64,000 nucleotides of DNA from Marsupella aquatica (Eukaryota; Plantae; Marchantiophyta): contig OZ316891.1 in assembly GCA_973895155.1 (NCBI GenBank), positions 27,905,145 to 27,969,144 of the forward strand. The letters run 5' to 3'. Positions 26,384 through 64,000 of this stretch are shown here, piece by piece (the stretch's first letter is position 1; each line of letters opens with the position of its first letter). Both the position numbers and the translations under genes were made by a program. The notes below the pieces were generated by a model that had not been told where the DNA came from, made no database searches, and worked only from the letters and a program-made list of their open reading frames with translations.

Positions 26384-27555
26384 ATGTCCTCTTCCTCTGA
26401 ACTATCCAGTAGTGAGTACTCCTCCGATGACGATATACCCCCTCCTCCTCAGCCCGAGGTTACTGGTCCTCGTGGTCCACCCCGAAGACTTTGTGACTGC
26501 GCCAGATGTGTGGGCCAAATTTCTCAAAAATCTTATGTGTGTGCTCAACATATTGAGAGATATGGACGTCATAGAGGTCTTACTCCCGGGGCTTCTTCAT
26601 CCCATATGGTAAGTTTGTTTCAATTGATTGCCGTTCTTTACTGTTATTTTTAGAGGTGAATCAATGTTTACACATATGGTTTACACATTTGGTTGTTTGT
26701 GGGTGTTTGCATGGAATAGGGATCCAGTATGCGTAGATTGGTGACACCACCACCCTATGTCCCATCACAAGGAGTTTTAGATGCTATAGGCAATGCACTT
26801 TCACAAGCCTTGGGTTTGGGAATTAGTACCAGTCATGGGACAGAAGGGGAACACCCTCATGTGCCCACTAAGACACGAAGACCCCGGTCCAGGCCCCAAT
26901 CCAACAGGAGGCCACGAGCACCCAATGACCCATCCAGAACACTAGTTCAGGGTAGGTGGGGTGTTTGTTCATTCACTGGCAAGTGTGCCTCTATCATCAA
27001 GGATTGGGAACCTATCACTCTTGGCTTGCCTTATTTTACAGATTTTGATGAGGAGATTGTGGTTTGGGGTAGACGTTGGATTGTGAAAACTTCCACACTT
27101 GGAGAGAGACATGGATATGGAGTATTTGCTTGTGAGGATATTATCATGGATGAGGAGGCCAGGGTGGGTCAAGTGTTCGTGGTAGAGAGGGTCCTACTTT
27201 GTTCCCATACGGTGGACCCATCTACAAGAGAAGACATTGGAACATGATCCTTGCACAACATCCTGAGTGGAAAACATATGCTCTAGAGATGGATACTTTT
27301 GATGGTAGCACTAGAAGGTATAGTGAGCAGCGGGTGATAGATGGTGATCCCATACGTAATGGGAATATTGCTGGTTTCATAAATAGTACTGTGGGGACTC
27401 GGCCCAAGCGTAGGGCCAATTGTGAGTGGGTTTTTACTGATGGTCCAATGCCGGCACCATATGGCACGACATATCATAAGGACCATTGCTTAGTTCTTGC
27501 TACTAGGACCATTAGAGCAGGAGATGAGTTATTCACACACTATGAGTGGGATTAG
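26384..27555 (+). CDS. Zn-finger exon (26384-26608) spliced to a SET-domain exon (26720-27555); one frameshift near 27170
   Basis: Exon 1 has CDCARC...HIERYGRH (CACTA transposase-associated finger). SET motifs are VKTS...GYGVFACEDI, FPYGG, GNIAGFINS, NCEW and ATRTIRAGDELFTHY. Phase-0 GT-AG junction. Confidence 0.8.
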
Positions 27556-47949: not shown

Positions 47950-48485
47950 ATTTTGCGAAACATCTTGCAAAACCCCTACACCCGCAAACTCATCGCTACA
48001 TTTGCGATACTTAACTGCTCCCTAATTGCCATCATCCCCTCATCGCAAACTTCCGAAGATACCACCATCTCAAAGTTGCGAAACCAAAACATTCACAAAA
48101 TGAGACCCTAGACAGGCACAGGATTTGCGAGCCTATTACTATTGCAAGTTAGCCATATATTCCACAAACATCGCTCATTTGCGAGACAATAAGACTCGCA
48201 AAATATTTTGAGATGCTTAAATATTCGCAACCATTTAGTTTTCCGGCGCATCTCAATGAATTTGCGAAGCGGTAAAGATCGCTAACTTGTTCAATGGTAA
48301 TTGCTTCGGAAATGTTTTGCGATACCTGAAGTGTCGTAAAATGTTGCGATGGTCTAAGTTTCGCAATTATGTGTTGCGATGTGTGTAGATTCGCTAAGTG
48401 CGATGCGTATCGTATCGCAAGTTTAGCGATGAGATTAATCTTGCAAAGCTTTCTTCCTCTTGTAAAATGCCTTCGCAAAATTGGC
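47950..48485. repeat. TTGCGA/TCGCAA subterminal motif array of the CACTA end at 48500
   Basis: Many tttgcga/tcgcaa-like motifs in both orientations just inside the terminus. Confidence 0.8.
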
Positions 48486-48500
48486 AAATATGTAGTAGTG

Positions 48501-50240
48501 ATTTTTTACCTTGTCTCTCTTTATGTGCAATAGAGACCACAGTGGAGAGTTAAGAAGAAGATAACATCTAATGTCACTTGCATGGGATAGTTTCTCAAGA
48601 CAAGGCCAAAGAATTGTTAGAAGAAAATTATCTCCACCATTGGCATGCGTGTAGGGCACTGGAAATAGTCCGGTCATGCTTGGGTTGGCAAATGCCTTAA
48701 GGGGGGAGTCATCCACAAGGAGGGTGTTGGTTTCATCATATAGATTTCCAAATCCACTCCATACCACCCAAAAATCCTTCATTAGCACATTTGCCTTTCC
48801 GTTTGTAATGTCACGCCTTTGAATGCCTGTGTCAAAGGCTTCCACCTGTGTGAATACAAACTTAAGTTTCGACCGCTCCTCAGCACTGAACATCATGTTC
48901 AACATTTTCACTGTTTGATGTACCCCAGCACATGTCCAAATTGCAATGTCAAATCGGTCAAAAACCAACTTTAGAAACTCATGGAGCCCTGGCCTTTCTG
49001 TGTACATGCGACTAATTCCATTTTTTCTATCCCAATGCACTCCACTTGGGGTCACAACATTTCTGGATTTGCCCTTGCTTTGGAATTCAACTGAATCCCA
49101 AAGTATTTTGTTAAGATCCAAAATCAGCAATTTGCGCTTGATGGAACAAGGTCTTGGTTCTGCAAGTGCAACAAATACCAATCTTAGAGAAAAAACCACA
49201 TTTGAAGTTTGGATAGAGATCATCTCTGTCAATCCAACACAAGTGGCCAACCACAAAAAAAAACATTTGCATACTGACCGTATTCATTGAGAAACCGTAA
49301 AGAGGAGATGGATATTGATACTCATGCTCTAATTATTGTTAAACTTGAAGTATAATTATACAGACTATATTATATCAAATTGATAAGGTCACATCGCTCA
49401 ATCTAGACCTTGGCCAACAATGAGATCCATATTCATCAATCAAGATATCATCACCGAGTTCTTGTTGGATCTCATAATTGACATCGGAGGTACTCTCCTC
49501 TACCCAATAAGGTGCCTGCAGACCAAACCGGAGTTATCAATCCCAATTCTCCACTTCTATAAGTTGGATCTTTCTTGTGCTTTTTGTACGAGTCATTGTT
49601 CAAAATTGATTGAGCAGCATCCAACGCAACTTCAGTTCCTACATCGGGTCCACTTTTCCACACGTAACATCGACAATCATATTCAAGTGACTTATATCCA
49701 GTTGATCCTACTCTCTTCCCTTTCTTTTTTGAGAGTGGAAGGATAACGGGACTTCTTGATTGTGATCGAACAAACACCAATTTGTCATCAGAAGCGGAAA
49801 AGAGTGTATCAGGACAAATTGAAGCACCTGCCTGGTTGTGGTCGTGGATGCACTTGCTTCATTCACGGGAATGTCAACTACTTGGATGGGCTGTGGTCTC
49901 AATCCCAATGTGTCGAGTTCATTGGACTCACCATGCCTCTCCGCACCTTGATTGAGAAGGTTGTTTGAAGAAAGTTTTTCAAACGTATCAACTTCCATCT
50001 CTTGTCCAGACACTTGTGGATGGAGACCATCTCTATCCAAGTTATCATCATATTGGCCCTCGTTGGGGCCCATGGGGGCAACATTTGTAATTGGTGAACT
50101 GCAAGGTGCAGATCCAACAATCATATCGTCTTCCACAAGGTCAATATTTTCACCCTTGCCAACTCGGTCATCCAAATTCTTCATGTATGCCCCCTCCGAT
50201 GGCCCATCGTCTTTGACTAATTGGTCAGGGGTATGATAGC
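48501..50240 (-). pseudogene. FCP1/NIF (CTD-phosphatase-like, HAD fold) domain gene; last exon ~48501-49158 is cut by the CACTA end, upstream exons approximate
   Basis: KRKLLILDLNKIL...ERPGLHEFLKLVFDRFDIAIWTCA...KDF..VW...NTLLVDDSPLKAFANP...GLFP. The HAD motif I reads DxN. The frame runs into the CACTA terminus at 48500. Confidence 0.8.
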
Positions 50241-50860
50241 CATGACAGAAAACAGAAAACAAAAAACCTGTTACCAGGGGTTTATTTTCTGTTAACAGGG
50301 AAATTGTACCTGTTACCAGTAAGCTTGTCCCTGTTACCAGTTTTGCCTGAACCATAACGTGCATATCCACCACTCTAAGGTGCATATCCACCACTCTAAT
50401 GGCATAATTTTTTGGGGGGCAATAAAGTTTAAAACTAACAATTATTTTGTGCCATCCGATGGATGAAGTGTACTATCAATCCTCCATTGACACAACAATT
50501 TATTGTAGAAGATAAAAAACATGGTATTAGGAGTGTGCCTAAAGAAACATTCATGCAAATCAATCTATTTTCATCGCCAAATAGTGACCCTTAGAGTGGG
50601 ACCCACCATAGCACATGTCAATCGTGGAGTCCAAATCAACCCAATCTAAAGGAGTTGATTAAATGGACCTTGTAACGTCACAAACAAATGACAAATCACA
50701 TCCTCGAGGCTTTGAAGATAGTAGACAATTTAATCAACTTACACATTTTAAATAAAACAAGAGGTCATTCTTCCACAATGCACGTACATAATGAAGCAAT
50801 GAATATCCGGTTTCCTAGAACCAGCGCCCGACGCTAACCAACAAAGTCTCAATAAAACAA

Positions 50861-53800
50861 CTAAAATATCCGTTGGAAAAAGACAAAATAGGGAATAACC
50901 GTTATATTGAACGACGACCTATTGGGCAGTTTCGATCTCTCACATAAGCCATTCAAGTTCTGCCTCTCCAGCACAAGCCTGACTTTGCCTAAAGTCAAAA
51001 TAGGTTGGCTACAAAGAGTCGACTCCTCAATCTCAAGTTTGAAAACATTTATGTACACCGAGTATAGATGTTTGCAAGGCATGTACGACTTGCCACGCGA
51101 ATGTCGGAGGAAGAAGTCTTCACAAGAGCAAGCGGGGAAGATACAGATTTGGACGAAGTATGTGCTTGGTGATCAATGGTTCTCATGGGTTCAAATTCGA
51201 AATTGCTTTCCAAAAGCATTTCCGGTCTGAACATTCCATTCCCCATCCAAACTCATCACTTCTTGTCGTGCAGACTCCATTCGCTTCGTGTGACCCACAG
51301 TGAGATTAGACCGAGGCCTTGAGTTCCTCCCATTCTGACTACCAAGTCGGAGATTCGGCTCCAAAAACCTTATTGTTTCTGGGAACACGTTAACATTTAT
51401 CCTGAGGTCAAAAGCAGATGGCACAGATTGACTCAATCCTGTTGTTCGCGCTAAGACAAGTCCTTGCTCTTCCAGGAATGTAATTTCAGAAGGAGACAGG
51501 CTCGTACCCTTCAGAATAGGCAAAATGTCAAGAAAAGGAGGAAGCTTCTGAACACCACGACGCGGATGACTCTTGTAACACGCTTGGTTCAGGCAAAACC
51601 AAATCATTTCGGAGATGGGTTCGCCCCTGAAGAGACGATGGCCCTTCACGACAATTCCGACAACACCTTCAGACGAATGGAAGCCAACCTTCTTGATACG
51701 ATTTCAACACTCATCGCGATCCGAACTCCCATTTAGTGTACCATTGCATTGCGGACCTGCTCCATACTTCGATGTCCGTCGCAACTGCCACTGCCCCAGA
51801 GGGACATCCTTCTCTAGCACAATTGTGCATGGAAGTTGATTCTGAAGTGCTGCTAGGGCACTGAGCGGAGGTTTTGAGGATCTTGTTGTTCGGGTTGTTT
51901 GAGGAGTATAGTCCAGTGAATCAGTATCACTCTCTGATGTGACCATACCTGAGAGATTCACCGCCTTTGTGACAGGATGATCAAAACTTGAGGGAATAGA
52001 AGAAAAGTCAGTTCTGTTCAGGTTCTTCCTTTTCAAACCACGAGTATTTGGTGTGGTTATTAGAACGGTGTCATGCCGACGGGAATCTTGTGGAGAGACA
52101 GTCCCAGTTGCATGTCCCTTCCTCTTCATTGACTTCATCATTATATCTCCATTCAGGGGAGTACTTCTTTCCAAATCGAATTCTGCTGCGTTAGATAGAA
52201 GCATATTAGTCGCTTCTTCAAACAATCTTGGCGAACCTGCTTGATCGGCGGAACGGAACGCCAATTCCCATATAGTTGGCCCCTTCCCCCGGTTCAAGCC
52301 TTTACGGTATGCACTGTATCCGGCAACTTGAGATAGAGCACGGTTTTGGTCAACTTCGCAAGCTTCATAAAGACCGACCTTTTTCTTTGTAGCCGAGGCT
52401 TTCATGGACGCATGCCTTGATTCTGACCCTGTACAGTTGGGGATCAAGGCACCTTCCTCAACGCTTTTGCTCTGCCATACGAAAATGTCAACCGTAAGTA
52501 GTATTCTATTACCAGCGCCCGGCGCTGGCAACATAAATATGTAGAACAAGCCTGAAATACAATTTCAATGTTTAATACTGAATTCTAACTACATATTGGC
52601 TTCAATTTCTTGTACTACTTATTTTGACGTGTATGGAGAAAATAACCAGCGCCTGGCGCTAATATGAAGTTGATGAACATTACAGTCTAGATAGATGGAT
52701 GCCTTACCACTCGAATAAAATTGCCCCACTGGCGCCAACGAACAACCCACCAAGATATCCAGCTTTGCAGCATCTTCAGCTTTCCGGGGACACAGTTTCC
52801 TGATTGCCACCACACAACAATCTCTCGAGACACCCGGTATGCTGCCACAAATGATGGAGCATTTCTCAGTTTCTCCCAAAGTCTCCGATGCTCCGAATGA
52901 CATTCTTCCAGTACTCCTTCCTTGGAATGACGATGAAAAGATTGATAAAAGTGAAATGCATCAGAGCGCTCCTGTGACGCCAATGACATGGTCCATATTT
53001 TGTAATCTGATTAAGTAGGTTGCTGTATGCAAGGAGTAGCTATTGATATTGCATAACAATTAGCAAGATGGCAAGAATAAGGGCAATCATGGCGTTAAGA
53101 GTAGGGAAATAAAAGCTATGTCGCAGGTGGTCGGCGACCATATCTCTTTCAATATGTCACCAAATCCGGATCTGTAAAGAGCATTGGAAAGATCTGGTCA
53201 AGGCGAGTAAAATCGATATAAAACACTCGGGAAACGGAGGTGTATTAAGAAAGATACGGCCTGATTAGTGTGACGGGTTAACTTGTGGCTGGAATTAGCG
53301 GATTCGGCTTCAGTTTCGGGTTAACCCAAGCTCGACCACGGCTTAGCTTATGTGAGCACGGCTTCAGCTTAGCTCAGGTCAGCACGGCTTCAGCTTAGCT
53401 TAGGTCAGCACGGCTTCAGCTTAGCTCAGGTAAGCATGGCTTCAGCTTAGGCTTAACCTAGGTTCGGATTAGATTGAACTCGGGTTAGCCTAAACTCGGG
53501 CTCAGGTTAGCATAGGTAAGCTCGGGTTTGGGCTCAGCTTAGGCTAGGTTAGCCGAACTAGGGTTAGCTATGTAACTCGGGTTAGCGCAGCAGTGAGTAC
53601 CCCCTCTCGGTTGCGGGGGCATAACTCTCTCTGTATTTGACCAAATCGGCTATAATTGACCTCGTTGGAAAGAGGAGCTCAAGCCGCTTCCAACGCTGTT
53701 ATCCACGCAGCAAATGGTTGAATACAGAAATCGGGAGAGGAGGCGTAAGCTCGCAAAAACAATGGAGGAGGGCCGAATCCGAAGTACATAGCCAATTCGA

Positions 53801-56800
53801 GATAGAAATAAAGTTGCGAGTTAGGGTTCAGTAGTTAGAGATAGTGGCGGCTCTATTAGGGCTGGGATGGGGCTCCAGCAGCGTAGCATCCACCCATTTG
53901 GGCTCAATGAGAGAGTATATAGAGCATCCCTCCGGTAGAGGCAGGGAGGGGACTTCAGTTGTGTGATCTCACTTACTCTGAGCAGCGGGGAGGAGCTCTG
54001 TGCAAGCAAGGCTAGACTTGGACGCTGTGTGTTGGGGAGAGCTTGGTTGTGCTATTACTCAGGGAGTAATCAGCCAAGCTTCACAGCAACGGGTTGCTAG
54101 GTTTGCGAGCTGGATTGTGGCTCTTTCTAGTGGGCAGCACAACTGGGTTCTTTTCCCCCGATATAGAGCCTTGGTGATAGGTGATGTATTGGTGATTGTA
54201 AACTGTGGGGAGGATTTCAATTCGATTTGCGGTGGGCACATTAGGGAGGCTGAGGTACTGATTAAGGGGCAGCAGGAGGAACATTTACAGTTCAGTCTGG
54301 CAAGGCTACGTGACCCATGGGGAGTCCCGGCCTTTGTCTGGTGGAGAGCACTAAGGGATCTATGGCCAGAGCTGAGCTTGCAGGGCAAGCGTGAGGCCGG
54401 ACCTCATTGCAGTCTGGGGTAGATCGCCGTTAGGCCTGGTACCAGCTTTGAAGTCGAGTCAACTATGCATGTGTAACTTGACGTTCTGAATTGGAGGTGT
54501 GAGATCTGTATGTGCCCCCAAGAATGAAGTGCAGTGAAGGAGGTTGAGTTCAGGATTGGGCTTGCAGGGCAAGCACGTCACAATCTGGAGGAGACAGCCT
54601 TCGGCCCTAGTGTTCGGATCAAGTGTTCTCAATGAACTATTGTGCACATCTTTGAATCTAATTGAGTTTTCCTCTCAGGCCTCATTTCTCTCATGGATGT
54701 GTGTGTGTGTGAGGCAATCTGAGTGTATGATGGAACTAGCAGCGCCACTGAGAGGTGTACCGGGTGCATTGAAGCGGGCTGGGTGAGGACTGTCATAGCT
54801 CTGATTGTTGAGAGTGGAATGGCAGAGTGGTGGGGCAATGGCTTAGAAGTCCCTAAGCCGGGAATCAGTCAGGAGTCACTGGTTTATGGGTACATTCCGG
54901 CGGCGGAATAGAAACATACCTATGACAGTAAGCATATGTATAGACCTATGCGCACCGTAGCGCTAGGCCCTGTGTGTACGGGCCCGATATGAAGACCCCT
55001 TCTCACCAGAACTATCATGAGCGCAGATGTGATCCCCAACCTTGGTTCCTTGGGATTGAGCTTGGGTGATGTGTGATAGAGTCTTGCTATGATAGTCTGG
55101 TGTTAAGGGCATAAACTGGTGTTTACCGGCATTCACAACATCCCTTCATGATCCTCAGGTACAAGGAGATGGTTTTGGCACCCATAGTGACGTCTTTGGT
55201 GTTAAGACCCATGTCAATCGCGTGACAGCTCCCTCTCCGGGTCCGAGTGTCCACCAAAAAAAACATTTCGCACTGCATTCCATCCAGCTTGTGCATTGTC
55301 AGCCATAAATCGTTGGATGACAACCTCCTGAAGTTCATTTTCTTTGCAAACCTCAATCATCACCCTCCATGCCTTTTCGAAGGACTCAGTGTCTTCACCT
55401 TTCAACTCGCATGTGAAAATTGTACACAGTGCACGGAAATTGTGGTCGTAGACGTGTGCGCTAAAAGTAAACCAATCCGTGGTGACACGCTGCATCACAT
55501 CGAAACTTACCCAAGCTCCTTCGAGTCTTCCACCCGGTTGCATCTGCCTCAAAAGATCCACACCGGAACCGTGACCTTTCACGGTCATTTTAAAGATGTG
55601 AGGCCTATCGTTCTGACATCCCTGACCTGGAAGCAAATACCTCTAGAGAAACGACACATGAATCCTCCTCTACATTTGCGAGAGAAAATCTAATTCACCC
55701 CGACCTTTTTGGTCTATCCTAACGCTCCGACAAAGAGATGCAAACTTCTGCGGAGTGGAAAGGACCATCAGAGACTTCCATATTTCAGTTTCTTCGATAT
55801 CGACCATGTCGTCAACATGTTCGCAGAGAGATTTCACTAAGGACCCTGTAGCAGAATTCAAGATCCCTGCCGGTTTTGACAGAGGATTGGCTTCATGTTT
55901 TTTTAATTGGATCCTCAGCTATCTTCTCCGCACTCCTACAGAAGGTTTTTCTACCTGGATGGTTGTGCTCACCTATATGAATTGCGAGGCGGGACATATG
56001 ACTACATGTTTCCGCATCAAGTAATACTTGGGGGTACATGTAAAACAAACGGGCAGGGCAGTACTTCACGCAAAAAGGAATCTGTTCGCAGTAATGACAA
56101 ACAACACCTTCCTCTTCGATGAAAGATCCCATAGCATACTGACCATTGAGCTTTGGAGTACCCTGCCATGCCTTAGCATTTGCCTTCTTCTTCCTTTGGA
56201 AATAGTCGCAGGACTTGTTCCTGCATTCAATGAATCCCGTACAGGTAACCTTCCCAAACTGCCAAAGGTTTTTAGGATGAACAGTTGCAGTTGTTGGAAA
56301 TATGCGTGTCCAAATATAACAATCTTTGGCACGATCCATGTCCCTAAGCCTAGAGCCTTTAGAGAGCATCTTATCAATGGGCGGCAACTCAAACACGACG
56401 TTACCATTGTACTTAGTTGGCAGACAGGACACTTGTTCATGCCTGAAATCACTTGCTAATATGAACCGTGACAACTCACTATGACCAGTTGATTTGAGTA
56501 ACGTATCCATCGCACTGCGCCGGTACACGACCTCCAACTGCTTAGAGCTTCCCGGAGTCTCAGCTTTCACGACAGCAGGGAGCTCAAAAATATGAATATT
56601 TTTGGATATTTCTATTAATACTTACTCTTTCTATCATTCTAATTTTCTCAATCTCAAAATTGATAACCCCTGAAAATAAAGGACCAGAAAAATGGACCAC
56701 TTATGAATCAGGCATAGAACCTACGAAAGGCGCTCGTATCCAATTTCAAATTAACCTAAGTCAATATTTAATTTTTTCGGAAAACTTTGGGATTGTTTAA

Positions 56801-57249
56801 TATTATAAACACACAGAACCATCTTATTAATGTTCGGGATGGATTGGTGTGGTTCCTCCATGCCTGAGACACCAGAATATCAACCCATAAACAGAAAGGG
56901 GGGGCATGTCCAAAAAAGTATCCTGAAAGAACCTCTTATACCCTGCCCCTTTCTTCTTCGACGGTGGACTTAGAGTACGATCTCCATCCTCACTTGAAGA
57001 AATCTCAACCACATCACATGGAACCAGCGGGAAACTGGACAGTCCTGCATACTGTCTTAAATGAACCGAGTACGAGATCCCTGCGTAGAGATGCCAAAAC
57101 CGTTCACCATCATCGACATTGAACGTTGCAGCATCCTCGATATCATCAATGGATTCGAGCTCTCGAACAATGGCCTCAATGTCATTCATCTTCAAATCAA
57201 ATCTCCCGCAGAGATACCTCTCCTAGACCTGTTTGTACGTATCTTCCAT
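50861..57249 (-). pseudogene. MULE/MuDR-like transposase: GCM/WRKY-like Zn finger, DDE domain and C-terminal SWIM finger; several nonsense codons; split by a solo LTR
   Basis: CTGFIEC..C...CHYC...CPAR...HIGEHNHP. Catalytic WVSFD, FMADNAQAGWNAVRNVF, DPERE|RSDAFHF (rejoined across the LTR) and NCTGSESRHASMK. SWIM YFVQI..FPACSCEDF...PCKHLYSV. An in-frame intron lies at 52472-52707. Confidence 0.85.
52973..55227. mobile_element. Solo LTR (2255 bp, probably Ty3/gypsy-type) with a 5-bp TSD
   Basis: TGTGACGCCAATGACATGG...CCATGTCAATCGCGTGACA, with GCTCC at 52968-52972 and 55228-55232. Excision restores the transposase frame. Internal ~25-bp tandem gcacggcttcagcttagctcaggtca at ~53355-53450. Confidence 0.9.
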
Positions 57250-58276
57250 GGGGACGGGGATAGTCACAATATCTTCAGGACCGAATCGAGAAAGAACGAT
57301 AGACCGAGACATGGTGAACAAAAACAAAAACCGAGGGCTATAGCGTTTGAAAGAAGAAAAGTTCATGGTATTGTTCAGCTTATATCTGTCGAACCTGGGA
57401 ATTTGACGTTAACCGATCCGTTTGTATACGACATAAAACATAGACGATGGAGGATCCGTTGGCACCATAAATGATTTTTGTCATTTTTTCCCTGAGAAGT
57501 CCGGATGTCAGACATGAACATATTGCTAAAAAGATCACCAACCTTACTTAAACAGACCATAAGATATGACAAGGTATTGTCAAATTTTAGTAGCGCCTGG
57601 CGCTAACTAAAATACGCCACTAAAAATGTGTCTGAAATCTTGACATTCCAAACTAGCGCCCGGCGCTAGTATAGAATAAATTCCCTGAAAATGAACATTA
57701 TGACCACATACCAGGTGGTAATTGGGAATAAATGGTGCCTTCAAAGGATGGTTTTGATTGATTATGGATGATAAATGAACATTTATACTAGCGCCGGGCG
57801 CTAGTATTACATTTGAGAAATATTTCTCCGTAAACGATGTACTGAAGGATACTTTAATAAAATATGGGGGTGGAAAGGCCAAAATTTATGTCATAGCTCC
57901 TTCAAAAAAGACCTCTAAATTTCTTCCAGTTTATACTAGCGTCGGGCGCTATTATAAGCATACTCTAAATTGTTCACCTTGATGGTCATCATTAATGCTA
58001 GCGCTCGGCGCTAGTATTGATATGATGTTAGGAAATGTCTTTAACGGTAACATTCAACGGTAACTTATGACTTCCGTGTGTGTTACGCATCTTCTACCAT
58101 TTGATTTTGGTAATTAAACCTTCCGAATACAGACGTTGGAAACCGCCAAACATCAGAGCTAATGGCTTTCCTCTAGGTTATGTCATCCTCCCGCTAGAAT
58201 ATATTACACGTTCAGAGATGATTATAGTTCCATAATTTCATTGTACGATAGTTCGTACGCTTCTAGAAGGAAGACG
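57250..58276. promoter_or_regulatory. Putative bidirectional promoter between the transposase and the ParB-MTase gene, with five palindromes
   Basis: Divergent ATGs at 57249 (-) and 58277 (+). Palindromes at 57592, 57655, 57790, 57938 and 58000. Confidence 0.6.
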
Positions 58277-61200
58277 ATGGAGGTATTCCCCTCTTCTTCC
58301 AAAGGGTATAGTGCGGTTCCTGACCAGGAGCGAGCTTATTCTGAATCTTCGCAGTCTTCGTTTACTGGTTCAGTCTATACACGTCGTGTAACTCGTTCCT
58401 CAAAGTTGTTGCCGCTCACTTCTGTCAGCGGTGTTTTGGGTCCAAATCCTTTGCGAAGAAAGATGGACAACGTAGACACAATTGCGATCCAGGATGTTGC
58501 GGATTGCGCGCTTGTTGAGACTGATCTCATTTCGAAACATGTCATGTCTTTTGGAAAGGATTCTCGTGGATTTGACAAGGAGCCGCCTTGAATCCCTCTG
58601 TGTTGATTGGTTCACATGGAGGTGGTTCATACTCTGTAGAAAGACAGCTCTTCCATCGAGAAGCTGAAAGACTCTTTTCGTAGTATGGGTTACAACTCTT
58701 CGATAGGGATGCGTTTCTATGTGCAGCCAACGGATGAGAATGGAATTGTTCTGACCTGTACCCAGGACATTCGTGATTCATGGGATCCAATATGGCAATT
58801 GGAGAACGAGAAGTTTGAGGCTGAATGCGAGGCTGACCCGGATTTTCTCGTCTTGAAGGATAAGATGTTCTTTGTATTCGATGGAAATCACAGGCTGTAC
58901 TCCTGGACACTTGTAACAGAGGAGAACCCGGACAATCCAAAATATCATCCTCGTGTGCTCTGTACAATATTTAAAGGAGACAAGGGATCTCTCATTGAAA
59001 TTGAGGCAGCTATGCACACCGTGAATCAGTAAGTTCTCATGATTTCCAGTTCTTTCCTTAAATCTTGCGAGTGCTGTATTTACTAGCGCTCGGCGCTGCT
59101 TATACATGAATTGTTTTTCATTGACTCTTACTCTCAACGTTTGTTCGTGTAGGCTTGGCCAAGCAGTTGTAGAGCCTTGGATCCTGGATGCGAACAGAAT
59201 CAAACGAATTCTGGCGTATGACCTTGAGTATTACAATAAACTGATTGACCCGGGTAATTTCAAGAAGTTTGAAAGCATTCGGCTGAAAACTCGGAAGGGG
59301 TCATGGTATACGAAGAAGATGCCACAAGAAGCACTTGCTTACATTCTTTGTGAGAATAAGATAAAGTCGTACTCGCATCAATTCAAACTCGACATGGAGG
59401 CAGCGGAGGCTCAAGGGAGTCCATGGTCGGCGCACGAGATTTCAAAACGGCATGCGGCCATGATGAAAGATGCAACCAAAGATTGGGCAGTGAAGTCTTC
59501 AAAAATTATGCCCTTATTAAGTCCTGAATTTGAAGATTTCCTCAGTTTATGTGCAGAAATGTATGCTGTCACAGAGAGAAACAAGAGAGAGAAGAAGCCT
59601 GACACCGTTGTATGTACGATGGACCGCGCACGATTGTTCACCGCTGTTTCTGCTCTAGACCCGAAGTTACGAAGCACTTTACTTGTGGCACATTGCAATC
59701 CTGAGCTGCGGAGACAGTTTTTTCACCCAGCAAGTGTTAACGATGATCCAGTCAAACAGTGGTGCCACACTTGGATCACTTGGAATAGTGTGGAGGGAAT
59801 TGCTGCTGGCATGTTACATTCATGTCTACGTGAAGTTGAGCAAACCATGCCCGCAATTAGATTGGAAGAGTGGAATTGTAGTTCGTTTGATGATCTAGTT
59901 CAGTTTGTTACAAATGAATTCAAGAGATTTGGTGATTCCATGAAGAATAAGTTCTTTCACACTATGTGGCCTTCAAAGTACCCTGACAAAGAAGATTACA
60001 CCCAGAGAAACCAGAAGCGAGCGAAGAGGTTTGTGTATAGGTTCTACATGCACATGGAGGTAACCAAACCTGATTACTTCTGGGCATATCCTGCAGCTTT
60101 TATGAAGTGGATTTCAATAAGTGAAGATGATGCCTTGGCTGATTTGTACTCTATGTACCCCACGGAGGGCATATTTCCTCCGAGACCAATGACAGAATGG
60201 GAGAGAACTCACTGCCCCTGGTATCTAGATACAGATAGATGGGATTCTCCTTTTGATCAAAGGGAAAAAGATGCCTTCCATAAGCTTTCAAAGTCTCAGA
60301 TGCCAGCAAAACTTGTGTCCGACATGAAGCAGGGTCTACTTGACGATGTAGACAAGTCTGCCACAAACTTGCAAACTATCTGTCAAACAACTGTTGTGCA
60401 TGTGGACCGCAGTCGCAAACCTCGCGCGAAAGCCAAAGCGGAGCTAGCAGCACCGAGCGAGTCTACTAAATCTGGAAAGAAGAGTAAGTATTGCTATCCA
60501 TGATTTTGCCAGCGCCAGGCGCTGGCAAAAAATATTCTGTTGAGGGTATTCTCTTTCTTGGTTATTAGGCTTCGGTTGCGACTTAAGTGAATTGCATTTG
60601 GTTAGCGCCAGGCGCTAGCTTCTTTCAATACTTTAAAAGTACTTATTCTAACTACGACCTGGTTATATTTTAGGAGGGAGGAAGTCTAATACGGTGGGAA
60701 CGGGAGATACGAAAAAGGATGCTACACCTGAAGTTTCCGAGGCAAACACGGGAGCTCGATCGGACCCCATTACTCCAGTCAACAAAGGGAAGGTTATAGT
60801 TCCTATCGACGCCACGAGTACCAGGAAGAAACGAAAGAGAGCTGTCGAAGGTGGACAATCTTTAAGGGAGAGTGTTATAGCTTCTGGTTTCCAACGTGAA
60901 GTTGGAAACTTCAAAACAACTGTGTCTCGCCATTGCATGGTTGAGACAAGCCTTTCTGAATTTTTTGACTCGACTTTCAACAAGGAGGAGAAGCCCGAGT
61001 GGGTTAGTGATGTGGAGAAATGGGGAAAAGACCTCGTTAAGTTGGGATTTAAAGAGAAGGGAGTTGTTTGGGGGGGAAAAGTAAGATCGTTTGGAGTGGA
61101 TGCCGGCTTCATTTACCTACCGATCGGGTTCAAACCATCTATCATTGATAAGAAGGTTCCTAAATGGAACATTCCAGATCACTCAATGGCTAGATCTTTT

Positions 61201-62363
61201 TTCAAATCCATGGATCCATTTTTATCAGATGATGGGTTCCTTGTAATTCTACACAATGGGGAGTACGATCCCATGTCGCAAGTCATTGCTGCCTGTCAGG
61301 AGTCAAGGAAATTTCAGTGTATATGCTTGCATAATGTTGTGATGTCTGACCCGATGTATGCGGCAAAGACAGACCGAGAGATGTTTACCCTCAGGCTCGA
61401 CATATTTGGCCGAATTAATGGGAAATGTAAAATTCCCAAAGACCCCAAATTTTGGCCGCTGTCCATCAGTGAGGACCCTTCGGTTACCAATTTGATCGAA
61501 CTCTCTTCGCTCAAATCAGATCCATTCCCGCAAATGGAGTTTGCTAGAAATGCTCGTCTGTCTGTGGGTTTTATGCAATCTGTTATAGAGCTTGTCACAC
61601 GGCCTCGTGATATTTTTATGGATTGGACTGCTGGGGCTGGAGGCTCTTACATTGCTGGCGACTTCTCTGGACGATTTGTACTCGGGATAGAACACCGGAA
61701 AGAATTTATTGAAACCGCTTCAAAGGTTTTCATGGATTTGTTGTCTCCCAAAGAGATTGCAGTGTTACCTCCACCTGTTCCTACTGCCGACAGAAAAAAA
61801 AAGATAAGCTTCGGTCGGTTCTCAATTTTGATGCTGATGATGAATCGAGTGAAGGTGGAGAGGAACAAGGTACAAGAAACTCCGAGGAGGAAAAGGGAGA
61901 GCGTCGTGCAGCTGCAGATGAAACCGATAGTGATGACTCTTCCGAGTAATGTTCATAAACTCGTAAGCTTCTTTCTCCATTCCCGTCAATTCATAACATT
62001 TCTTTTGTTGTTTTGGGGAAAGGCGCCTTACAAAATGGACTTTGTTATATCAGGTCAGAGTGGAATGCAAGGAGATGATTCAAACTACAGAGGAAGATCG
62101 CGAGACACAACGTAGAAACACCGGAAAAACCATTTGTTCTTCCCTCCTATGCAGAGAAAGCCGCAAGGAAAGCAGAAAGTGCAAGGACACTTTGCTGGGA
62201 AAACAAAGGTCTTCGGTTACGAAGGGGTGTTGACTGAAAGTTCATTAAACATCCTTATGTTGATGACTTCTCCCGCAGCCAGTACGTAGATGATGAGGCT
62301 GTGTCCACGGACAGATCCCAGAGTACAGATTCTGGTTCCGACTTAGAATCTTCGGAACCGTGA
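58277..62363 (+). pseudogene. ParB/sulfiredoxin-like domain plus beta-class N4C/N6A DNA-methyltransferase-like fusion gene (exons 58277-59028, 59153-60483, 60674-~61945; 3' end approximate); three premature stops in exon 1
   Basis: ParB-like IPLC*LVHMEVV.TL*...IEKLKDSF.SMGY...FFVFDGNHRLYSW. MTase-like VDAGFIYLPIG (motif IV position) followed by LSVGFMQSVIELVTRPRDIFMDWTAGAGGSYIAGDFSGRFVLGIE (motifs X-I-II). Both GT-AG introns keep the frame. Confidence 0.78.
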
Positions 62364-62689
62364 GAAGTAGTGGGTAGTTGAGGCTAAATCTTTTAGCAGC
62401 GCCCGACGCTTGTAACATCTGTATTATTTCCCTCTGTTGAGGGTCCTTTTAAATTGTTGATTTCTCTCTACTTGTTGATTACTTTTGACTTCTGTTCTTT
62501 ACAAGCGCCTGGCGCTCGCCAAATGGAATCTCTAAATGGCCGTTTAGTCTTTGTTGTTTCCTGTCAACGGTCATCATCATTGGATACCAACTGCCATTTG
62601 GATTGTGTTCTTTAGTCAGTCGTCGGAAAACCGTTGGGGACCATAGTTTCCGGACGATGATTCCATAGTTTAGGGACTGGGTGGAAGGG

Positions 62690-63000
62690 ACGACTATAGT
62701 TTCAGTTTAGGTTTGTTCGGGACGATGAGAGTTGGGGACGTCGATAGTTGAGGACGACGATAGTTTCGGGAGGATGATAGAACGGGACAATAGAACGGGA
62801 CGATAGAACGGGAGGGGAGACTTTGTTTCGGGATGATGATAGAACGTGACGATAGAACGGGACGATACTTCGTTTGGGAAGACTTTGTTTCGGGAATATG
62901 ATAGAACGGGATGTTAGAGCAGGGTGATAGAATGGGACGATACCTGTTACCAAGGTGAAGATAGTTTCGGGAGGCAATAGAACGGGACGATGATAGTTTG
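62690..63000. repeat. Short degenerate tandem repeats GATAGAACGGGAC / GACGATAGTTT
   Basis: At least 7 atagaa(c/t)g(g/t)ga units plus a duplicated gactttgtttcggga. Confidence 0.8.
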
Positions 63001-63148
63001 ATGGTCGTTTCGAAACGGTAGTGTACGCGGACCTTTATCTGGCGTCTTAGTCTTCGCGGACCTTTCTTTGACCTTTGTCGGCTATAGCACTCGCGGACGA
63101 CGTTCTTATGGGAGGAGAGGTTACATATTAGATCAGGATCTTTGAAAC

Positions 63149-63610
63149 ATGGCGAGTCAATATGAGCCAATGGATTGGGAGGCAACTTTTCGTCCTTCTC
63201 GTGTGCGTCCGGAAGAGAGCCATTTCAGCTCTTTTGAATCGCGGATGGAGACTGAAGAAACTGAAACTTCCACTTTTCGGAACCGTCATGCTCTCCCGTA
63301 TGATGAGGCTATTAGTCCTGGAGAGAAGAACATCCCTTGGATTGTCGATTCCCCTGCGCCTCCGTTCTCTAGTCGGTTTTCATCTCACCCGGGAGTTCTT
63401 GTTGATGGGGTACTCCCAATCGATCGAAGAGTACAAGAAATGTTCGGGCGAGTTGATTTTAAGGACAGTAATATTCCTAATGAACATTTTATGAGGGCTG
63501 TTCGTCGAGGACCTTCAGAGGGATACGTTCGTTTGCGTGGTCTCGGCTTCAAGAAAGATCGGCGGAGAGAAGCAACAGGAGTGGATGATGATTGCAACTC
63601 GGAAAGCTAG
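63149..63610 (+). CDS. Hypothetical 153-aa protein, probable accessory gene of the MULE unit
   Basis: Open ATG-initiated frame with protein-like composition, flanked on both sides by palindromes. No recognisable domain. Confidence 0.45.
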   Translation: MASQYEPMDWEATFRPSRVRPEESHFSSFESRMETEETETSTFRNRHALPYDEAISPGEKNIPWIVDSPAPPFSSRFSSHPGVLVDGVLPIDRRVQEMFGRVDFKDSNIPNEHFMRAVRRGPSEGYVRLRGLGFKKDRRREATGVDDDCNSES

Positions 63611-64000
63611 ATGGAAATTTTGTTTTGCTGATCGCTTTAAGCTAGCGCCGGGCGCTGCTAAAGTTTTCCGGATTTTGTGGCATTGAAGTCGACCTCAGCT
63701 CTGGCGTTAGGGTTTTCCCGATTGTCTACTATTTAGGTTTTGGCTAGCGCCGGGCGCTATTGAAACGACAACGGATTTTGTGGGAGGGAATGGATCTTGA
63801 CTATGTTGTCTGGGTTTGGACGCATCTTGTCTCCAAGAAACGACTAGTTTTCTAGTTAGTTTTTGGCTAGCGCCGAGCGCTGTTCATGTATTAGTCAAAA
63901 ACCTCCGACGGTGTCGACCGTGACTTCATGGATGGGATTTTTAGGCCAGATTGTTGATGTTGATAACTGCATTTTGTATCACTTAAGTCGAGCGCGTTTT

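Follow-up and report, generated by a model that had tools for sequence, protein, structure and literature searches.

A 64,000-nucleotide stretch of the genome of the liverwort Marsupella aquatica (contig OZ316891.1, positions 27,905,145 to 27,969,144; hereafter the window) carries a gene in which a ParB-like domain, a helical middle domain and a methylase domain are fused. The gene is carried as accessory cargo by a plant DNA transposon present in many copies, and it points away from the transposase. The original prediction, made from the letters of the window, had described the fusion and overlooked both its cargo status and the palindrome array of the element. The explanation favored here is a self-protection module resembling that of VANC, an accessory protein of Arabidopsis VANDAL transposons: a ParB-type clamp is predicted to load on the element's own palindromes and to shield the element from methylation. 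The probability of this reading is put at about one half. Self-protection is the simplest account of an apparently selected pseudo-methylase, a ParB-type switch, family-specific palindromes in non-coding DNA and retention of CpG dinucleotides.

The fusion gene and its relatives

The ParB–methylase fusion is supported as a real gene by sequence comparison, its splice model being backed by homologues. One reading frame runs through 58277-59028, 59153-60483 and from 60674 onward, across two GT-AG introns. The parts of the gene, all on the forward (+) strand, are the following:

58277..59028, +, exon 1: low-complexity N-terminus, then the ParB/sulfiredoxin (Srx)-fold domain at about 58586-59026
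58589, 58604 and 58637, +, stops in exon 1, in the same frame as the fusion
59029..59152, +, intron 1: GT-AG, phase 2, one palindrome (59085) inside
59153..60483, +, exon 2: conserved all-helical middle domain, then the start of a basic linker
60484..60673, +, intron 2: GT-AG, phase 1, two palindromes (60511, 60604) inside
60674..61945, +, exon 3: basic linker, beta-class N6/N4-methylase fold, frameshift in a run of nine A (A9), acidic tail
61114-61125, +, motif IV position YLPI, in exon 3
61621-61647, +, motif I DWTAGAGGS, in exon 3
61946..62053, +, intron 3 (inferred): GT-AG, 108 nucleotides, phase 2, placed by frame and by weak similarity of the next exon to homologue P0023
62054..62363, +, exon 4 (inferred): internal stops at 62076 and 62235, end stop at 62361-62363

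The original prediction read a single protein of more than 1100 amino acids through three stops and two introns. The stops and both introns are where it had them, as are the motifs it named (IPLC-X-L, GY, DGNHR at 58880-58894 in exon 1, YLPI and DWTAGAGGS), but its model does not reach the acidic tail, which sits in a different frame behind the A9 run at 61794-61802. Other copies have one extra A in this run, and the window copy is frameshifted there. The fused frame it proposed was found, but the single protein requires crossing this frameshift, and the full model to 62363, about 1221 amino acids, requires in addition the third intron and the two further stops. Exon 4 resembles the C-terminus of P0023 weakly (one of 1000 shuffles was as good), which is why it is counted as inferred. 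With five stops and one frameshift the window copy is dead. Among the best-supported 40 of 1419 variant rows, to which position 58604 does not belong, the stops at 58589 and 58637 are replaced by sense codons in other copies.

With the exon 1 domain as query, a full HMMER search returned 248 proteins at E <= 0.001, 150 of them listed. Of the listed homologues, 77 extend to the end of exon 1, and 43 of these 77 terminate exactly one residue past a common Asn, which is where a stop within a shared GTAA donor would end them; another 21 read through for more than 50 amino acids. Exon 2 is matched by 14 homologues. Other copies have three additional bases at 59177, which put the intron 1 junction in the register of the homologues.

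A metagenome scan found 208 relatives, 80 of which were kept and reduced to 44 de-duplicated groups. The profiles were iterated on the same metagenome loci, so that the E-values are optimistic. Related loci do not count as independent of one another. Twenty de-duplicated loci extend at least 3.5 kb downstream: in 19 of them ParB is followed by the middle domain, and in 17 the N-terminal half of the methylase lies downstream of ParB. Of 23 loci with at least 3 kb upstream, five have a transposase-like sequence there in the opposite orientation, and no other arrangement was seen. The family is 25-65% identical, with the three-part architecture and intron position conserved. One near-intact member, locus L010 (20-3753), has additional introns compared with the gene in the window, including one within motif I. 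These comparisons support a ParB plus beta-class methylase architecture that is conserved across the family.

Horizontal acquisition of the gene is plausible, as for both folds the closest named relatives come from phages or bacteria; beside these fold relatives stands the likeness of the ParB part to eukaryotic DUF3723 clusters, described below. Scans of viral and prokaryotic genome contigs gave no close relative, and a separate, earlier metagenome scan with the methylase exon as query gave none. Word-based homologue searches found nothing among longer proteins and one match of similar length.

The two folds and the state of the methylase

The exon 1 domain is supported as a ParB/sulfiredoxin fold on the strength of a structure model, because six structural matches agree and the GNHR motif is present. 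An AlphaFold model of homologue P0043, built from 91 input sequences and confident over most of residues 135-710, has as its six best VIA matches KorB, PadC, Pnob8 ParB, Srx, SerK and Atu1540, all of ParB/Srx fold (Z 7.6-5.2, rmsd 2.7-5.3, 89-100 residues aligned). The individual Z values are middling, the best being that of KorB (Z 7.6, rmsd 2.7, 95 aligned). In Foldseek, ranks 1-10 were ParB or Noc, none significant, and nothing in PDB and viral models reached E <= 0.001. By motif tally, the GxxR phosphate-binding motif of the fold is present, since 103 of 109 motif matches among 151 proteins read DGNHR (85) or EGNHR (18). Sequence and profile searches of Pfam, PDB and phage genomes gave no match to the ParB part, and none of 69 family members scanned had a Pfam ParB match; weak DUF1015 and DndB rows from these searches were not counted as matches. 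The ParB assignment of the original prediction is therefore upheld by structure, through the agreement of the six VIA matches.

The Atlas clusters nearest to the ParB part, at 0.96, are those of DUF3723, a domain found on 47% and 31% of their members; no DUF3723 Pfam match is present in the window or in the scanned homologues. As a side observation, the Atlas look-alike clusters for residues 140-320 of P0023 come from ascomycetes (DUF3723) and cnidarians, which suggests that ParB-like cargo is spread across eukaryotes. Between the ParB and methylase parts lies the helical middle domain, about 450 amino acids long.

The exon 3 domain is supported by sequence comparison as a beta-class N6/N4-methylase fold, in line with the original assignment. 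It matches PF01555 (N6_N4_Mtase) with E 3.6e-4 at 21 bits, under the gathering score of 26.7, the DpnA-labelled structures represented by PDB 5hek with E 4e-4, and Atlas N6_N4_Mtase clusters at 0.95. Phage methylases match weakly, with a profile probability of 96% over the C-terminal 75 columns. The order of motifs is permuted, the motif IV region preceding a C-terminal motif I, and aligns with that of phage enzymes in which DLPY or DPPY comes first. A single-sequence structure model of this part was poor (predicted local distance difference test score, pLDDT, 39), and the fold search from it was not used. The S-adenosylmethionine (SAM)-binding motif, earlier described as intact, is so by motif only: the D-x-x-x-G-x-G pattern and the motif II acid are present as DWTAGAG..GIE in the window and as DWNASTG..AFEED in L010, the two sequences on which this tally rests. 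L010 is the only related locus with the C-terminal half of the methylase; none of the 20 loci that have long downstream sequence shows it, a rarity that may be due to introns and decay.

Motif IV, in contrast to the catalytic pattern (D/N/S)-x-P-(Y/F/W), reads YLPI in the window and YLPT in sister copies. Across 61020-61220, none of 37 variant rows from four runs falls in the Tyr codon of YLPI. The fourth residue in other copies is Thr rather than Ile in all four runs, and homologue P0001, 63% identical, also has YLPT. A sequencing-error or one-base origin of YLPI is thereby excluded, the Tyr codon being without a variant in any contig, and the original description of the motif as one base from DLPI does not hold. 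Of the 37 listed variants, 21 are synonymous (P 6e-4 against 30%), an excess indicating that the motif is maintained in this form. Among 20 aligned segments from the family, most of them from decayed copies, the first position is D in 12, N in 4, Y in 3 and E in 1; Pro is present in 16 and an aromatic fourth residue in 2. L010 has DIPE as motif IV, and homologue P0093 has DVPF. The HPTQKP segment of phage enzymes is not conserved in the window. In the motif IV consensus, which had been proposed as a check, the first Asp is usual and the stacking aromatic residue nearly absent. From these alignments, the family appears to keep D-x-P and probably SAM binding, with the stacking residue gone, and the window's subfamily appears in addition to have lost the motif IV Asp. 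The methylase part is likely a pseudo-enzyme without methyl transfer. Between the two options that the original prediction left standing, this favors the pseudo-enzyme; an active N4-methylcytosine (4mC) or N6-methyladenine (6mA) writer in intact copies is unsupported in the subfamily, where YLPT is fixed.

The element, its palindromes and its CpG content

The element is longer than 13 kb. A 9 kb stretch of it is multi-copy, being matched by 1756, 1005, 2249 and 179 contigs in the four runs, many of them less than 95% alike; contig depth over this stretch is no copy number. From the multi-copy spread and the arrangement of related loci, the status of a host gene is rejected for the fusion. No terminal repeat was found among the repeat pairs listed, and the right end apparently lies past base 64000. 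The other features of the element are as follows:

50823..63881, strand not assigned, array of the palindrome AGCGC[CT]-N-[AG]GCGCT, 17 sites at no more than one mismatch
50990..57312, -, broken transposase gene, starting at 57312 and divergent from the ParB–methylase gene
57313..58276, strand not assigned, region between the divergent starts, with five palindromes (57592, 57655, 57790, 57938, 58000)
52973..55227, strand not assigned, insert resembling a solo long terminal repeat (LTR), with TG..CA ends, a 5-bp duplication and internal 26-bp tandem repeats
56583..56950, +, plastid ndhC-like fragment inside the transposase

The palindromes, of AGCGCC-N-GGCGCT type, are scattered through 13 kb, and the two certain introns of the ParB gene both contain some. 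They are densest in the shared region beside the transposase start and occur in a transposase intron as well. Of the 17 sites, 16 are in the element, all of them non-coding, and one is in the LTR-like insert; none of the 16 falls in the coding part, which makes up 62% of the element (P 2e-7). The array is absent from the first 47 kb of the window, and the maximum in 60 simulations was 0. A family-specific motif in non-coding element DNA is also what characterizes the VANC system.

Relatives lack the palindrome word of the window and have different palindromes of CpG type clustered in the DNA upstream of ParB. With a count tolerant of deamination, and with 12 of the 44 loci excluded for having less than 1.5 kb upstream, the 2 kb upstream of related genes contains 66 long palindromes against 14.5 expected, 23 of 32 loci lying above expectation (P 4e-5). 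There is no such excess in the gene body (13 against 12.9 expected, 25 loci). The motifs are clade-specific. In locus L015 (1562-2450), a near-intact ParB exon is preceded by six TTCGG-NN-CCGAA sites, three of which are spaced 75 bp apart, and a clade of six members has an AAGCT-N3-AGCTT type that resembles a deaminated CpG palindrome.

The coding DNA of the element is rich in CpG. The ratio of CG to GC is 261/292 (0.89), against 198/601 (0.33) in four neighboring CACTA or Copia stretches. With the motifs masked, CpG observed/expected (o/e) is 0.65-1.08 in the element and 0.23-0.38 in neighboring CACTA/Copia stretches; across codon boundaries, the values are 0.49-0.61 and 0.05-0.29. Two host RING-type open reading frames (ORFs) are similar to the element (0.74 and 0.90). 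Among the 44 related loci, four of the five with no more than 0.5 stops per 100 residues have CpG o/e of 0.61-0.71, and of the remaining 39 only one exceeds 0.6.

The transposase, which we take to be of Mutator type, has a GCM-like zinc region (55893-56582), a D..D pair (55229-55642), a DxxH after 52971 and a SWIM-like CxC..CxH near 51060-51130. It gave no Pfam, PDB or plasmid match, and these motif labels are without library confirmation. The solo-LTR-like insert splits the gene between the second Asp and the DxxH. The ndhC-like insert, of 366 bases, is present only in the window copy and is skipped by the others. To the right of the ParB gene, the interval 62630-63000 holds short tandem and dispersed repeats of 13-62 bp. 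The start of a further ORF follows on the + strand (63146-63610), without a Pfam match and succeeded by three palindromes; it is probably another cargo gene of the element.

The window also carries CACTA and Copia elements; these, the plastid fragment and a mutation bias at CG and CHG mark it as nuclear DNA of a plant. A NIF/FCP1-type phosphatase ORF (48435-49283, Pfam E 5e-15) is CpG-poor and probably belongs to another element; it was rejected as part of the present one, having CpG o/e of 0.32 and no palindromes and being found in none of the 44 locus representatives. A PHD-finger ORF (1642-2313) and a SET-domain ORF (26720-27555), both CpG-poor, each lie directly upstream of a CACTA transposase gene and represent chromatin-reader cargo on other transposons of the same genome.

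Proposed self-protection, its alternatives and known systems

In the favored mechanism, the protein would recognize the palindrome, probably as a dimer, via the helical middle or the methylase fold. Nucleotide binding at GNHR would close the ParB-like clamp, which would then spread for kilobases from the palindromes, and the dead, SAM-binding methylase head may grip cytosines. The spread protein would block or divert the host CG and CHG methylases, and with these kept off, the shared promoter and the transposase would remain on. Protein and palindrome would co-diverge by family, as VANC proteins and VANC motifs do. A role in transcription would not be foreign to the fold, as ParB-fold clamps regulate transcription too (part of PMC12704722).

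Several observations weigh against this mechanism. CpG is scarce in 39 of the 44 related loci (o/e 0.44 or less), L011 and L085 being CpG-poor despite few stops, and CpG content does not correlate significantly with intactness by rank (rho -0.26, P 0.09, n=44). On an approximate tree, the five loci rich in CpG cluster with the window, which makes lineage or host a confound. Of 22 selected well-supported T or A sites specific to the window copy, 16 are in CG/CHG context (36% expected); this copy was unprotected and took methylation-type mutations after its death. Taken with the retained CpG, these changes suggest that the lineage escaped methylation as long as it was active, an escape that dead copies no longer make. 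The introns of the near-intact L010, a locus without upstream DNA, hold no palindrome array. A whole-chain structural search with the P0043 model listed no match for the middle domain, whether to the helix-turn-helix and C-terminal dimer domain of ParB or to any other fold, and a missing match does not by itself establish a new fold. Finally, the transposase has a predicted DNA-binding region of its own.

That last point suggests another reader of the palindromes. The transposase may bind them through its GCM-like zinc region and activate, or assemble on, its own element, with the ParB–methylase protein as a less specific helper. The crowding of sites beside the transposase start and their presence in its intron would suit this account, as would the middle domain's matching no known DNA-reading fold, and a precedent exists in the Mutator transposase AtMu1, which in the available part of the preprint activates its own copies by sequence (bioRxiv 10.64898/2026.08.24.746577). 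However, the sites extend over 13 kb and into the two certain introns of the ParB gene instead of standing at the element ends, palindromes are what ParB-fold proteins are known to target, and in red algae inverted repeats are described beside the ParB cargo of Plavaka, which has a different transposase. A transposase reader is on balance rather doubtful. Less probable still is that intact members are non-canonical but active 4mC or 6mA writers, whose mark on their own element blocks 5-methylcytosine and with it CpG loss. The frequent Asp and Pro of motif IV, the DVPF of P0093 and the motif I retained in the window and L010 are compatible with such activity, and plant and rotifer 4mC writers of the same Pfam family exist. 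Against it stand the scarcity of the aromatic fourth residue, the DIPE of L010, the fixed YLPT of the subfamily and the loss of HPTQKP in the window; in the rotifer enzyme N4CMT, moreover, activity was abolished once the Ser and Tyr of SPPY had been exchanged (in the portion consulted of PMC8885841).

The protein and its palindromes could instead serve transposition, compacting or bridging a very long element and pairing its ends in a manner unrelated to silencing. ParB clamps spread along and bridge DNA, the element exceeds 13 kb, and the Atlas family closest to the ParB part, DUF3723, is carried as conserved cargo by giant Starship elements. Such a role leaves the retained methylase fold, the CpG-rich motifs and the element-wide CpG retention unexplained, and is judged improbable. 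The least likely account, to which very little weight is given, is a passenger gene without a role for the element, the CpG richness reflecting recent arrival or a host that methylates the element little. The confinement of CpG-rich loci to one group on the tree would fit it, but the synonymous excess among copies, the architecture and intron position conserved down to 25% identity and the non-coding placement of the palindrome arrays would not be expected of a passenger.

As a proposed self-protection module, the system resembles VANC, a Mutator-like accessory gene whose family-specific motifs are located in introns and intergenic DNA. According to the part of the work available (PMC5735166), VANC differs in having DUF1985/DUF287 domains and same-orientation motifs in tandem repeats; the window system, known here from sequence alone, has ParB and methylase folds and CpG-rich palindromes. 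No Pfam match to DUF1985 or DUF287 was found in the window or in the scanned homologues. Similar in content is the cargo of red-algal Plavaka transposons, PAG2 (PF01555 methylase plus SET) and PAG3 (ParB-like plus 2-oxoglutarate (2OG) oxygenase), by which separate ParB and methylase cargo genes are already known (bioRxiv 10.1101/2025.02.11.637652, available in part). There too, a eukaryotic DNA transposon carries a ParB-like domain and an N6/N4 methylase domain, with inverted repeats beside the ParB gene for which self-binding was proposed, and such cargo is also found on Chondrus Mutator elements. Compared by description, the red-algal domains are in separate genes, whereas the window protein fuses both around the 450-amino-acid helical domain, has a degenerate motif IV and a land-plant host, and has its palindromes dispersed through introns. 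Neither a SET nor a 2OG-oxygenase domain was found in the window pieces or in 30 homologues scanned.

In phages, ParB–methylase fusions are common, and fusions of ParB-CTPase with N6_N4_Mtase in phages and prophages have the same two folds in the same order (part of PMC12704722). These are prokaryotic and intron-less, unlike the window gene, which is eukaryotic and spliced, has a long helical insert and lacks a DPPY-type motif. An amino-methylase of prokaryotic kind in a eukaryote is also represented by N4CMT of bdelloid rotifers (PMC8885841) and MpDN4MT1 of Marchantia (bioRxiv 2021.02.12.428880), but as described in the parts available these belong to the host, retain SPPY intact, lack a ParB domain, act in silencing or sperm function and are not transposon cargo. 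DUF3723 (PF12520), the conserved cargo of fungal Starship elements, resembles the window gene in being cargo of giant eukaryotic transposons and differs in that no methylase fusion or function is stated for it in the accessible part of the source (bioRxiv 2021.12.13.472469). The gene should be classed neither with active methylases nor with VANC. The fusion was undescribed in the literature searched, where only the red-algal preprint and general papers bore on it, subscription journals and Repbase reports being outside that scope; the parts covered of a survey of eukaryotic amino-methylases, supporting files aside, contain no such land-plant transposon clade (PMC4738411). ParB–methylase cargo is apparently an undescribed variant of transposon cargo that likely recognizes and guards its own element.

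A wider proposal, offered tentatively, is that transposons of land plants code for a ParB sliding clamp, gated by nucleotide, that loads on family-specific CpG palindromes as a eukaryotic parS and pulls a dead methylase of bacterial type along the element as a shield against methylation. Such an anti-silencing clamp would be unrelated to VANC and retargetable through its palindrome, and might represent the function of the whole ParB-like/DUF3723 cargo class. The ParB–methylase family is a second, structurally unrelated candidate for escape from DNA methylation by plant transposons, for which the protein and its family-specific DNA site can be named and CpG retention serves as a long-term footprint, so that the means of this escape becomes testable by a binding assay together with a methylome. 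If true, self-protection of this kind would bring a ParB-type nucleotide switch into eukaryotic chromatin and would suggest a role for the ParB-like cargo genes of giant algal and fungal transposons. Should the palindrome code prove changeable, the protein might provide a sequence-specific demethylation tool.

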